Shown here piece by piece: positions 1 to 16,207 of a DNA stretch of 16,207 nucleotides (its first letter is position 1; the number at the start of each line of letters is the position of its first letter). Location: the IMG/VR virus record IMGVR_UViG_643348545_000010. The stretch is one strand, 5' to 3'. This DNA is from a virus. Taxonomy: Duplodnaviria > Heunggongvirae > Uroviricota > Caudoviricetes. The notes under the pieces were generated by a model that was not told where the DNA came from, searched no databases, and worked only from the letters and a program-made list of their open reading frames with translations. Made by a program: the position numbers and the translations under genes.

Positions 1-165
1 ATGGCAAAGCCGATCATCACGCTCAATGGCCTAAAAATCGTCATTATGTTGGGAATGCTGGTCATTATTCTCTGCGGTATCCGTTTTGCCGCCGAGATCA
101 TCGTGCCGTTTATTCTCGCATTATTTATTGCTGTTATATATAACTTATTTCACATAACACGTTGA
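1..165 (+). pseudogene. tqsA: 5' fragment of tqsA (AI-2 exporter TqsA/YdgG), interrupted by the island
   Basis: ATG at 1; translation [45 protein letters not shown] matches my memory of the E. coli TqsA N-terminus. After about codon 45 (nt ~136) the sequence turns AT-rich, reads IYNLFHITR and stops at TGA 163-165. The native protein is about 344 aa. Confidence 0.5.
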
Positions 166-211
166 TTTAATTAAATAATTTTCACCGCAAAAAGTGCCAA
201 AAATCGCAAAA

Positions 212-233
212 TGACTACACCAGTGACTACACC
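212..233 (+). repeat. Tandem direct repeat TGACTACACC-AG-TGACTACACC near the left junction; possible integrase arm-type site
   Basis: Two exact 10-mers with 12-bp phasing, about 70-90 bp inside the point where the tqsA frame diverges. Confidence 0.4.
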
Positions 234-249
234 GTTCGGTGCACTGTAT

Positions 250-276
250 GAAACAACGTGGAACAAATAGACACAA
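250..276 (-). promoter_or_regulatory. Phased TTGTTC-type hexamer repeats (minus-strand orientation), left-end copy
   Basis: Plus strand reads GAAACAA-cgtg-GAACAA-atag-ACACAA. A 15-bp core AACAACGTGGAACAA is identical to the site at 7753-7778. Confidence 0.4.
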
Positions 277-344
277 GAAATATACAGGCGGATCATCTTT
301 CCAGGGGGAAGCGCACCAATTCATGAGGGGCGTTAATGTCGATA

Positions 345-747
345 TGGGGATCCCCACCTACCGGAATTTTTTTCCGGTTAAACGTTAATCAGGCTGGTGG
401 GCTTTACCTGTTCGGTAGGTGTTATGATTATCGTAATACCTTTCCCCCAATGGGGTAAAAGCATCAACCGTAACGAAAGTCGTTATGGTTGCCACTGATA
501 CCCCAAATTTGGGTATCACGAGTAAGACCCAAAATCTGGGTGTTACTCTTACTACCCAAACTACGGGTAGTTTCCGTAGTTTCATGGTCGAGTTGCAGAT
601 CTGCAACTCCCCCATTAACCACAGGCGAATTTCCGCCTTCGGTCATTCCTTAATCATCTGCGTAATCATAATGATTATTCAGCAAGCGCAATTTTGCACT
701 TTGCTTAAAGTTCAGCGAGTTACCGCGCCGACTTCCTCAAATTGAGG
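345..747. repeat. Palindrome-dense non-coding block at the distal end of the island
   Basis: TGGGGATCCCCA (345-356); CCGGAA-N5-TTCCGG (361-377) nested inside CACCTACCG...CGGTAGGTG (355-363 / 413-421); CCCCAATGGGG (445-455); three sites of form ACCC-A3-N-T3-GGGT spaced about 27 bp apart (499-516, 527-541, 553-570); direct repeat GTAGTTTC x2 (567-583); GTTGCAGATCTGCAAC (592-607); CCTCAAATTGAGG (735-747). ORFs here have implausible composition. Confidence 0.5.
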
Positions 748-902
748 TTTCCGAAAATATCAGCGGGTTAGCGATTAAGCTGATCATTAATTAAACTGCG
801 AAAATTTCGTAGTTTGTGACTGTCTTTCAGGCAGCTTGTTAACAGTCCTCAGAAGCGAGGGATGTAGCCACCCATTTTTGGTCCGTCGGGAATATCAACC
901 AG

Positions 903-1184
903 TTACCGCCGCAACCGCTCCGGCTTCTTCCAGTGGTACGTTATTTTCTCCTTCTCCCGATACATCTCCACGCGGCGACGGTAGGCCAGCAACTCAAGAA
1001 CTCTGGTTCGTATGTTGCGCATATCCACGCCATTAAGTTCTATACCATCACGGCGCATCACCTCAGCAACAACACGCGCATAGTTTTCGGCTGTCACGCT
1101 GTCCGGCTGCGTGGCCTGTTCGTCAGCCTGCTGGCTGATTCCGGCAACGCGGCGGATTAATCCCGTTATTTCGGCTTCTGTCAT
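903..1184 (-). CDS. Hypothetical protein (93 aa), last gene of the packaging operon
   Basis: ATG at 1184 with GAGGT 8 nt upstream; starts 14 nt after the terL stop. No recognisable motif. Confidence 0.55.
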   Translation of the reverse strand: MTEAEITGLIRRVAGISQQADEQATQPDSVTAENYARVVAEVMRRDGIELNGVDMRNIRTRVLELLAYRRRVEMYREKEKITYHWKKPERLRR

Positions 1185-1197
1185 GCTGCTGACCTCA

Positions 1198-14157: not shown

Positions 14158-14251
14158 TAGCATTGCCCACCAGCCTGATAGCGGCTATCATCCCCGTGCT
14201 TATGTTTGGGATCATATACACATAAGGCGCAGCGGGTTATCTGTTCAGAAA

Positions 14252-14279
14252 GGCGGCTCCATTTCGGGGCCGCTTTTTT
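14252..14279 (+). terminator. Rho-independent terminator ending the plus-strand RHH operons
   Basis: GCGGCUCC-auuuc-GGGGCCGC followed by 7 T; sits between the convergent RHH operon and alpA. Confidence 0.65.
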
Positions 14280-14426
14280 TATGCCTGAAAAACCCCAATT
14301 TTGTGGTTTTCCAGTCTCACCAGGGCGAACGAATCCCCGCCCACGTTCTGGCGTATATTCAATCTTCATGGTTATAGCTCTGTGTTCAGATGATTGATGT
14401 GTGGCGGCTGTGTGCCGCCAGCGTGA

Positions 14427-14615
14427 TTAATGAACTGCCTTGCAGCTATCCTTCCAGGCCAGAACCTCGGATAAAGACCAGCCAACGGAACGACCGCCAA
14501 GTTTACGACGTGATGGGAATTGTCCGGCCTTTTCCAGGCGGTAGCGGCATGAGCGGCTAAGGCCTGTTAGCTTTTCGCATTCTTTTTCACGTATAAACCG
14601 ATCAGTGCTTAACAC
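14427..14615 (-). CDS. alpA: AlpA-family (Xis/Vis-like) regulator
   Basis: 62 aa; DRFIREKECEKLTGLSRSCRYRLEKAGQFPSRRKLGGRSVGWSLSEVLAWKDS fits the AlpA consensus; GTG start at 14615 with AAGGGGG SD. Confidence 0.82.
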   Translation of the reverse strand: MLSTDRFIREKECEKLTGLSRSCRYRLEKAGQFPSRRKLGGRSVGWSLSEVLAWKDSCKAVH

Positions 14616-14774
14616 TATTGCCCCCTTTCGTTTCTTAAAGAGTTATTTCGTGTTCTATTGCGTTGGGATGTGTCTGATTGTGTCAGGATGATTCAGAGTT
14701 GGCAAATGTTGAGGCCGTATGGTTTACAGAAAGAGGAATAATCAGGATAAAATCATTTAAATTCATGTTAATAC

Positions 14775-14806
14775 AAAGGCATAAAATATTGTTTCATGCC
14801 TTTTTT
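14775..14806. terminator. Candidate weak or bidirectional terminator between int and alpA
   Basis: Stem AAAGGCAT / ATGCCTTT with a 13-nt loop and a following T-run on plus. Confidence 0.3.
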
Positions 14807-14897
14807 CTCGCTATTTAAAGAGTGATTCGCTAGTGTATAAAAAACCAGTAACACATTAAAAATCAGCTACTTATAAATCTGTACACTTTTTCGCCTC

Positions 14898-14943
14898 TTG
14901 TTCGTAGTTGTTCCGCATTGTTGCTCATTGTTGCACGTTGTAT
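14898..14943 (+). promoter_or_regulatory. Array of four to five 10-bp-phased hexamers TTGTT[CG] just downstream of the int stop
   Basis: TTGTTC-gtag-TTGTTC-cgca-TTGTTG-ctca-TTGTTG-cacg-TTGTAT; same motif family as 250-276 and 7753-7778 but in the opposite orientation. Confidence 0.45.
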
Positions 14944-14989
14944 CTGTTCGCATATCCAGTATGCGCATACTGAAAAAATACGAAAAAAA

Positions 14990-16207
14990 TTATTTTCTTC
15001 TGGCTACTGGTAGCGTGGTTACGTTTTCATGTGTTCCCGCCAGTATCCCTAACCGCTCCATCCACATATCCAGCACATTGCGTTTAGCATCCAGATAACG
15101 GGAATGATTATAAACTCGCTGCATTCCTGGCATCTGGTGGCCTGTAAGCTGCTCCACGACATGCGGATCAACGCCTAAATCGTTCAGCATGGTTGTAAAG
15201 GTGCGCCGGATGTCATGCAGTGACCAGTGAGGATGATTAAGCCTCCTGTGCGCTAATCTTCCATACTGCGATACGCTGGCCTCCTGTTTCGCTTCCCCCA
15301 GCAATAAGCCCGTGTGCCTGTTCTGCTCCACCAGCTGCGTGACGAACGGCAGGATCGCTTCCGGTATGGGCCGGAATATTGCGACCTTCGTTTTGCTGTG
15401 CTCCTTCGGAACGGTCCATAGCATTTCCGTAAAATCCCACTCCCCGATCTCCGATAGCCTCAGTTCTACCGTCCTGGCTCCGAAGACAATCAGGAGGCGG
15501 ATTAACGCGACGTAGTAAGGGGAAAATATTTTTTTGTCCAGTGCCTGCAATAATTCGCCAAGTTCTTTGTTACTTAAGACACGTTCGCTTATATCCGGTT
15601 TTTTCCCAACGTCCGCCACGTTCAGATCGTCCAGAACGTTGCTGATTGCATAGCGCCGCCTACGGCAGAACTTAAGCGCCTGTTTGCACGCCTGTAGCAC
15701 GAATCCGGCAGTAACAGGCGTTCGCTTTGCCACCTGGTCAAAACAGGCCAGCCAGTGCCGTAGCTCGCATTTATCCAGCGGCATAGCACCAATCTGCTGT
15801 ATTACGTGATTATTAAGTCGCCTTTTCAGGGCGATATAATCCACGCGGTTTTCCTTTACGTAAGACTCAAGCCAGTAGGTGAGCGCATCGCCAACCGTTA
15901 CGGGCTTTAACGCTTCCTGTACGGTGTAATTCATCTCATGACGTGGATTTTTCCCCTCAGCCAGCCATGTGCGACACTGTGCGGCTTTTTCCCTGGCTGC
16001 TTTCAGGCTCAGATCAGGATAACTTCCCAGCTTAATGCGTTCGGGTCGTGTCTCCCTTCCCGTTCCGGCCCTGTATGTGAAATACCAGGTCAATTTCCCT
16101 GATGTTAAATATTTCACGCTCAGGTTTCCGCCATCACTATAAAACGTGTTTTTCTCCGCTGGCTTACCATGAAGTTTCCTTAGCAAGGTATCGCTCAGTT
16201 TGTTCAT
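14990..16207 (-). CDS. int: Tyrosine integrase, P4-like family
   Basis: 405 aa; N-terminal arm-binding and SAM-like domain; C-terminal catalytic region (ARTVELRLSE ... HDIRRTF ... GHQMPGMQRVYNHSRY) with the conserved R...HxxR...Y residues; ATG at the window edge. Confidence 0.92.
   Translation of the reverse strand: MNKLSDTLLRKLHGKPAEKNTFYSDGGNLSVKYLTSGKLTWYFTYRAGTGRETRPERIKLGSYPDLSLKAAREKAAQCRTWLAEGKNPRHEMNYTVQEALKPVTVGDALTYWLESYVKENRVDYIALKRRLNNHVIQQIGAMPLDKCELRHWLACFDQVAKRTPVTAGFVLQACKQALKFCRRRRYAISNVLDDLNVADVGKKPDISERVLSNKELGELLQALDKKIFSPYYVALIRLLIVFGARTVELRLSEIGEWDFTEMLWTVPKEHSKTKVAIFRPIPEAILPFVTQLVEQNRHTGLLLGEAKQEASVSQYGRLAHRRLNHPHWSLHDIRRTFTTMLNDLGVDPHVVEQLTGHQMPGMQRVYNHSRYLDAKRNVLDMWMERLGILAGTHENVTTLPVARRK

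Follow-up and report, generated by a model that had tools for sequence, protein, structure and literature searches.

Here we analysed a 16,207-nucleotide stretch of viral DNA, IMG/VR record IMGVR_UViG_643348545_000010 (the window, meaning the whole stretch). Its sequence very probably contains a capsid-forming phage-inducible chromosomal island (cf-PICI) of Escherichia coli, inserted in the host gene tqsA and a mosaic sibling of the prototype EcCIEDL933. By analogy with that prototype, the island would build its own small heads and take only tails from a helper phage. EcCIEDL933 comes from E. coli O157:H7 (Alqurainy et al., bioRxiv 10.1101/2022.09.08.507074; He et al., bioRxiv 10.1101/2025.02.11.637232). 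In the comparisons below, the element of O157:H7 ATCC 35150 (locus L003, between phoQ and roxA) stands in for it; the capsid protein of this element is identical to that in PDB 9GYI. Only for EcCIEDL933 and a few others have experiments shown that a helper induces the island via alpA, that the small capsids are made by the island, that it packages itself exclusively, and that it depends on helper tails. The family has been reported in about 13% of Enterobacteriaceae genomes. Satellites of this kind have already been described genetically, structurally, and in genome-wide censuses, and the window element represents no new principle. With their own heads and foreign tails, cf-PICIs move DNA between strains and even between species.

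The components that can be recognised in the sequence are an integrase with core and arm-type attachment (att) sites, an AlpA regulator, a P4-family primase with an iteron origin, and a complete HK97-type head and packaging operon. Of the SatelliteFinder cfPICI model, the window has all 11 core components and none of the forbidden tail and holin components. Published criteria accept cf-PICIs of 10-18 kb; the island here occupies about 16.3 kb between att repeats in a host gene, with the right end taken from relatives. No open reading frame (ORF) has a family match to a tail, baseplate, holin, endolysin, or CI-type repressor in Pfam, PHROGs, or NCBIfam, less than 1.5 kb of DNA is left without assignment, and the left flank, like both flanks in the relatives, is tqsA. 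A preliminary description of the window had already recognised a tail-less head and packaging island, and its gene list from integrase to TerL is borne out by Pfam, in the gene order published for proteobacterial cf-PICIs.

Head and packaging operon

Almost all coding in the window is on the minus strand, as seen in the ORF list and in base-composition skews, and the features below are on that strand unless noted. The operon begins with an HK97-fold major capsid protein of 385 aa (6381-7538; PF05065, 1.7e-61). Its ORF spans 6381-7586, with the true start at M17, position 7538. The protein is identical at 383 of 385 positions to chain B of PDB 9GYI, the differences being T117A and T155A. According to the depositors' paper, PDB 9GYI models the capsid of EcCIEDL933 from cryo-EM at 3.24 Å; the shell is T=4, measures 47.5 nm, and is made from the island's own gene 1786.

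The capsid gene is followed by an S78 prohead maturation protease (5769-6341; PF04586), which is 97.9% identical to that of the O157:H7 element, and by the portal (4556-5767; PF04860, 9e-91; 99.5% identical). The two head-tail joining proteins come next: a Phage_HCP head-tail adaptor or head closure protein (4221-4559, or to 4601; PF05521), identical to the O157:H7 protein at 108 of 112 residues, and a gp6-like head-tail connector (3928-4224; PF05135), identical at 97 of 98. The adaptor also matches PDB 2KZ4, a 'putative head-tail adaptor', at 5.9e-70. The packaging genes encode an HNH endonuclease of the HK97 packaging type (3491-3928; PF01844) and a TerS of the P27/HK97 type (2843-3199; PF05119, Terminase_4), both 100% identical to the O157:H7 element, and a TerL with TerL_ATPase and TerL_nuclease domains (1198-2859), 98.4% identical to the EcCIEDL933-type protein. 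Between hnh and terS lies a 60-aa ORF (3322-3504; phrog_3173), identical to the O157:H7 element at 59 of 60 residues. By position it is the homologue of EcCIEDL933 gene 1792, in a numbering deduced from capsid = 1786; loss of gene 1792 severely reduces transfer. A conserved 93-aa ORF (903-1184; phrog_1561) follows terL and is 100% identical in the element of the O55:H7 strain USDA5905 and 87% identical in the O157:H7 element.

The order capsid, protease, portal, connectors, hnh, terS, terL is the one published for proteobacterial cf-PICIs. The preliminary description had proposed a comparison with cf-PICI reference proteins; the nine packaging-operon proteins, the near-identical capsid among them, are 96-100% identical to those of the EcCIEDL933-type element, against a published range of 50-90% among members of the family. 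Its statement that both head-tail joining proteins are present also holds. Since the adaptor and connector set the tail specificity of cf-PICIs and differ from those of the O157:H7 element at only 4 of 112 and 1 of 98 residues, our best guess is that the island would probably use tails of the same HK106 type as EcCIEDL933.

The same genes could in principle be the residue of an HK97-like prophage from which tail, lysis, and immunity genes were deleted, a dead remnant and no satellite. HK97-type prophage remnants are common in E. coli, and the head and packaging genes here are of the HK97 type. We nevertheless regard this origin as very improbable. No packaging gene is truncated, and each is 96-100% identical to its counterpart in an experimentally mobile element; the capsid protein belongs to a T=4 satellite shell of solved structure; and the half of the island that carries int, alpA, primase, and iterons is of the PICI type, not a lambdoid early region. 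The same compact layout, cleanly bounded by att sites, is seen again in hundreds of genomes, and the relatives examined use two attachment sites. A complete HK97-like temperate prophage would have tail, tape-measure, baseplate, host-recognition, lysis, and immunity repressor genes beside the head genes, and these are lacking in the window. HK97 and HK106 share the same protein families with the island, and the same HNH requirement is implied, but their capsids are at most 40% identical, their shells are T=7 rather than the published T=4, and the island has no tail module.

A capsid protein search of phage records gave the same separation from complete phages. Four records reached 58-66% identity: vB_KppS-Ant (16.5 kb), Pasteurella Pmp8 (15.3 kb), a 3.8 kb fragment, and the end of a 106 kb Klebsiella record. 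Full-size phages were at most 40% identical, so the head proteins do not cluster with those of complete temperate phages; it is such clustering that the preliminary description had named as speaking against a satellite.

Once the EcCIEDL933 capsid is set aside, the solved structures closest to the capsid come from the Rhodobacter capsulatus gene transfer agent (GTA; E ~1e-46), and the GTA portal is among the homologues of the portal (E ~1e-20). These matches could suggest a domesticated GTA-like head module that packages random host DNA, which we consider close to negligible as an explanation. The capsid resembles the GTA protein only distantly (E ~1e-46, vs 1e-255 with the cf-PICI capsid). 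An integrase, att sites, and a replicon of its own are present, TerS and HNH form a sequence-specific system, and EcCIEDL933 is published to package itself specifically.

The candidate cos site of the island is the 122-bp gap between the gene 1792 homologue and terS (3200-3321). Read on the minus strand, this gap contains the conserved GGGGTGGGGGCGTTTTCAGGAC at 3307-3286 and then a G+C-rich stretch. The linear vB_KppS-Ant record ends exactly after the homologous TTTTCAGGAC (GGGGTGGGGG.GTTTTCAGGAC, window 3307-3286) and restarts just before terS. The cos site probably lies in this gap upstream of terS, while the ends of the vB_KppS-Ant record may not be physical ends.

Two further sequence features flank the capsid gene. 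A 17-nt inverted repeat is found just upstream, at 7629-7676, and a terminator-like hairpin just after the gene (6350-6371), a consensus match only, is a possible attenuator.

Attachment sites, replication genes, and distribution

The left end of the window is host DNA. Positions 1-137 (plus strand) are 100% identical to nt 1-137 of K-12 tqsA and lie outside the island. This tqsA fragment points to E. coli or Shigella as the host, while species-representative genomes gave no match to exact 41-mers. In three E. coli relatives, O55:H7 USDA5905 (L001), W24 (L004), and SHP24 (L005), tqsA resumes at nt 129 beyond the integrase gene. The att core is therefore TGCTGTTAT, at 129-137 on the plus strand and repeated at attR in all three relatives, and the island starts at 138; the start at 136 given earlier was essentially right. 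For the relatives, the distance from the point of the window end to attR is about 190 bp, and the rest of tqsA and pntB come next. The island thus spans 138-16207 within the window and about 16.3 kb in all. The remainder of tqsA and the att repeat had been predicted for the right flank, and it is these, then pntB, that the relatives have there, not contiguous tail or lysis genes.

The tyrosine integrase (14990-16207; Arm-DNA-bind_3 and Phage_integrase) has its ATG at the window end. It is 98.3% identical to the tqsA-site integrase of USDA5905, and identities across USDA5905, W24, and SHP24 are 96-98%. At the opposite end of the island, tandem GACTACACC repeats at 212-234 (plus strand), with ACTACACC present twice and nowhere else, form a probable set of arm-type integrase sites in the P' arm of attP. 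The tandem GACTACACC is also found in the int-proximal arm of USDA5905 and the O157:H7 element, just past the integrase gene, and these repeats are probably arm-type sites belonging to both attP arms. The EcCIEDL933-type element uses a different core, AAATATGTCC, between phoQ and roxA, in place of TGCTGTTAT inside tqsA. Despite the different cores, the integrases are 91% identical and the attP arms 94% (att ends at L003 3200-3300 and 18486-18700).

The AlpA regulator/excisionase (14427-14615; PF05930, 65 bits; phrog_2790) is encoded next to the integrase. In the replication region, three small conserved ORFs (11486-12094; phrog_5796, phrog_1478, phrog_3672) are followed by a DUF4222 protein (11181-11480; family match) and by a P4-family primase/helicase of 582 aa (9436-11184; D5_N, DUF5906, Pox_D5; TIGR01613). 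The primase is 97% identical to that of W24 and 89% to that of USDA5905. Just downstream of the primase gene, a non-coding stretch (9150-9435) holds the replication origin at 9198-9421, in which eight GGTAGAGR iterons in both orientations form two sets flanking an A+T-rich stretch. All eight of the window's GGTAGAGR copies lie here, against a chance expectation of 0.41 for the whole window, and 0 of 200 shuffles reached eight; for the shorter GGTAGA, 11 of 12 copies are in the same stretch. The iteron origin proposed in the preliminary description is thereby upheld, and the same two-set layout in both orientations around an A+T-rich stretch has been published for Gram-negative PICI origins (PMC6092414). 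The island accordingly combines an integrase, an AlpA regulator, and a primase-replicase with its own origin.

Beyond the origin lie a small ORF from the ORF list (8871-9149), a single-stranded DNA-binding protein (SSB; 8464-8874; PF00436), a homologue of the PerC family of transcriptional activators (8205-8477; PF06069, 122 bits), and a small conserved ORF (7839-8063; phrog_1957). Two identical 23-nt terminator hairpins (AAAAAGCCGGATTGCTCCGGCTG, plus strand) are present, one after the perC-like gene (8161-8183) and one after the small ORF that comes next (7798-7820). The window contains no tRNA genes, and a PADLOC search of ten ORFs otherwise without assignment gave no defence-gene matches.

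Comparison with the EcCIEDL933-type element shows where the two islands agree and where they diverge. The gene order is the same, the packaging half (891-9126) has 96% DNA identity, and AlpA, SSB, and the DUF4222 protein are 96.8%, 98.5%, and 94% identical. The primases are different: the EcCIEDL933-type enzyme is a 710-aa DUF927 protein, to which the 582-aa D5_N/DUF5906 primase of the window aligns over the N-terminal 225 aa only (53%). The window also has an extra C4/icd cassette, an extra pair of genes with a ribbon-helix-helix (RHH) gene, and different repeats at the 3' end. USDA5905 shares the tqsA att site and matches the window over 1-11495 at 94.6%; W24 shares the primase, the C4/icd cassette, and a four-gene plus-strand block.

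At least 407 of 5426 complete E. coli genomes contain 80% or more of the packaging module, 59 of them at 99% identity or more, and 115 of 5426 contain 80% or more of the window as a whole. In the collection, the window is covered to at most 88% by any one complete E. coli genome, and region 11400-15000 to 69% by the best. By these comparisons, that region is a new combination of known modules, each piece of which is found elsewhere. A megablast of the window against 50,697 phage records returned four records, with at most 12% of the window covered at less than 80% identity. The packaging module of the prototype thus travels, little altered, in the company of differing integrase targets, replicons, and regulatory cassettes.

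C4 RNA, structured module, and proposed life cycle

The leftward operon opens with an Icd-like gene of 65 aa (12544-12741; NF033153, 64.7 bits). Behind it lies a C4 antisense RNA of the P1 C4/P4 CI type (12309-12396; RF01695, 69.1 bits vs a gathering score of 45), with a c4-a1b1 target motif upstream (12464-12513; RF03163, 46.8 bits vs 46.7). Downstream of C4 there is a ribosome-binding site and a second Icd-like gene, of 56 aa (12087-12257; NF033153, 53.7 bits), whose stop codon shares bases with the GTG start of the ORF that comes next. On the minus strand, C4 has the 9-mer GTTTGACAG on either side, at 12472-12480 and at 12301-12309, the second copy directly after C4; with one bulged base allowed, each is the complement of CUGUCAAC within C4. 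The Rfam consensus has GGCAG and GCC at the pairing positions, so the target and the RNA have changed in concert. Duplex energies between C4 and its targets were no better than those of shuffled controls when whole structured RNAs were used, and the pairing argument is therefore drawn from the exact complementary words alone. At the level of sequence, the features of a P1 immI or P4 CI-type RNA module are all found: the RNA fold, complementary targets, and a downstream icd-like ORF.

The C4/icd cassette (12126-12558, 433 bp) is an insertion relative to USDA5905 and the O157:H7 element. C4 is found in W24 and SHP24 and falls below the gathering score in USDA5905, the O157:H7 element, and vB_KppS-Ant, and 121 complete E. 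coli genomes carry the cassette. Rfam matches to C4 and isrK in Gram-negative PICIs have been noted earlier (PMC10111431), so the observation is not new in kind. The preliminary description had stated that there is no lysogeny-CI gene. This stands for a protein CI repressor, but the region does contain the C4 RNA immunity element, the two Icd-like genes, and two RHH genes of the Arc and YlcI types.

These features raise the question of whether the island is instead a classical PICI or a P4-like satellite that remodels a helper capsid and does not use its own. Classical Gram-negative PICIs of the EcCICFT073 type (L020, L021, L022) share the layout of int, alpA, Icd-like, DUF4222, primase, and SSB genes (as in L020) and the iteron origin, and in L020 and L021 an orf93-like gene is followed by the structured 3' module described below. 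However, they have only genes that remodel capsids or redirect TerS and they use helper capsids, while the window has a full head and terminase set, which is what sets cfPICI apart from PICI in SatelliteFinder. The resemblance to P4 and P1 immI consists of the P4-family primase (TIGR01613) and the succession of target, C4/CI-like RNA, target, and icd-like genes, down to the icd stop codon that overlaps the next start codon. Unlike P4 and P1, the window lacks sid, psu, delta, epsilon, and ant, and island replication genes take the place of ant or alpha. PHROG scans of the window ORFs gave no matches to sid, psu, delta, or Rpp-type genes, and of the P4 attributes only the primase domain and the C4/CI-type RNA are present. 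A capsid-remodelling satellite is scarcely credible on this evidence, and a cf-PICI with a P4-like primase and RNA cassette is the better description.

At the other end of the island, 430-660 is a highly structured module. Its elements are three ACCCAAA..GGGT inverted repeats set apart from each other, a perfect palindrome of 20 bp, and a further hairpin. Whichever strand is taken, folding is far stronger than in shuffled controls (z = -9.6 and -8.7). No Rfam family matched 430-660, and a scan at E values up to 10 returned noise only. The core of the module (492-614) is present in more than 1000 E. coli genomes without annotation. In the satellites we inspected (L001, L020, L021, and L022), it is located at the far end, after the orf93-like gene where that is annotated, and its hosts include cf-PICIs, classical PICIs beside clpS, and a PICI that sits inside a lambdoid capsid gene. 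A covariance model built from four copies of the module found no divergent homologues in loci from other species. We also considered the module as a lambda-like cos and rejected it, as lambda-type cosN is absent from both the window and the classical PICI L020.

The EcCIEDL933-type element is without the structured module and has tandem 48-nt units in its place. In the O157:H7 element (L003 3637-4075) there are 4-5 such units of about 48 nt, each with a variable hairpin and a conserved GAAAATATCAACCAGTTACCGCGCC. The conserved part corresponds to the orf93 reading frame at its 3' end (..AVTG stop), and the units look like repeated gene-end remnants. In the window only weak copies of the unit occur, at 712-774 and 895-909.

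We tentatively suggest, with somewhat more doubt than confidence, that this cf-PICI lineage is held quiescent by a P4-CI/P1-C4-type antisense RNA, located upstream of a translationally coupled icd-like gene and the primase operon, which could perhaps provide immunity specificity among co-resident satellites, and that 430-660 is either a functional RNA or a protein-binding element, so far undescribed, of Gram-negative satellites. If so, this would be a cf-PICI with RNA-based immunity, which the prototype EcCIEDL933, being without the cassette, does not share. The RNA-immunity cassette and the conserved structured element could be studied in the existing EcCIEDL933 genetic system.

The life cycle proposed here is modelled on known systems. 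In the quiescent state of this variant only, the C4/CI-type antisense RNA and its flanking targets would help to silence the icd-primase operon, in the manner of P1 immI and P4 immunity. A helper phage would then turn on alpA, as in EcCIEDL933 and other Gram-negative PICIs, and the island would excise and replicate from its own origin. Its capsid, protease, and portal would form T=4 heads of about 47 nm that fit only about 15-16 kb; TerS, TerL, and HNH would cut and package unit-length island DNA at the island-specific cos site; and the adaptor and connector would close the head and dock it to helper-made tails.

Several points weigh against the identification as a cf-PICI that works in this way. 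For the window element itself, the identification is read from sequence, and attR lies beyond the window, leaving the intactness of the right end to be judged from relatives. Where cos lies and what the C4 RNA does are likewise deduced. At about 16.3 kb, the island is about 5% (about 0.9 kb) longer than EcCIEDL933 (15.4-15.5 kb) and might come close to the most that a T=4 head can hold; against this concern, the published size range of 10-18 kb covers it, and a 16.5 kb relative has been deposited as a phage record labelled 'induced prophage'. Finally, the primase and regulatory region are unlike those of the prototype, so the helper or inducer may differ.

Plus-strand block and related records

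Between alpA and the replication operon, four small genes are on the plus strand (12942-14157), and the sign of the AT skew flips there. All genes had been described as lying on one strand, which is correct for those listed at the time, all minus, and does not extend to these four. The block comprises a YlcI/YnfO-type RHH gene (12942-13247; NF041551, 60 bits) followed by a partner ORF of 75 aa (13305-13532), and an Arc-like RHH gene (13753-13926; phrog_228) followed by a partner ORF of 62 aa (13969-14157). Matches within the block are to phrog_6522, phrog_228, and phrog_21027, and the RefSeq annotation of W24 shows the same four-gene plus-strand layout.

Three long minus-strand ORFs in the variable region were rejected as genes: 13632-14369 (245 aa), 12767-13711 (314 aa), and 12087-12593 (168 aa). 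None has a family match, unlike the plus-strand ORFs and the short icd-like ORFs that they overlap. In comparison with W24, the 245-aa ORF has 47 indel columns, and its substitutions (44/53/61) are not concentrated at third positions; the 168-aa ORF contains the C4 RNA and its target. RefSeq annotates a 247-aa minus-strand ORF, the counterpart of the 245-aa ORF, over the homologous DNA in O157:H7 (L003 15907-16650) and O55:H7 (L001 18719-19462). This 'gene downstream of alpA', which apparently also figures in published cf-PICI maps, may be spurious; we note it as a lead and not as a result.

A similar situation is seen at C4. RefSeq has a 154-aa 'Icd-like protein' coding sequence in W24 (L004 2989-3453) and in SHP24 (L005 2997-3461) that spans the whole C4 RNA (L004 3211-3298 and L005 3219-3306, respectively), and in SHP24 also the a1b1 target at 3374-3423. 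The real icd-like ORF in these coding sequences is probably only the last 56 or so codons.

The int-alpA intergenic region has short tandem repeats, AATCATGTTAA in three copies and TTGTTGCACA in 3.4 copies, at 14740-14771 and 14908-14941. These are possible regulatory sites of a helper-dependent alpA promoter.

Some records deposited as phages resemble the window element. 'Escherichia phage vB_KppS-Ant' (LR881103.1, 'induced prophage') has int, primase, head, and terminase genes and no tail module, with one 765-aa ORF labelled as tape measure; it has the look of a cf-PICI that was deposited under the name of a phage. Another cf-PICI may be the Pasteurella 'phage' Pmp8 (OR544139.1), judging from its size and capsid identity alone. 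In the 106 kb 'Klebsiella phage' PQ569648.1 (L007, 88271-106503), cf-PICI-like terminase, capsid, protease, and portal genes lie at the very end of the record, which is possibly a chimeric assembly or includes a co-packaged satellite.

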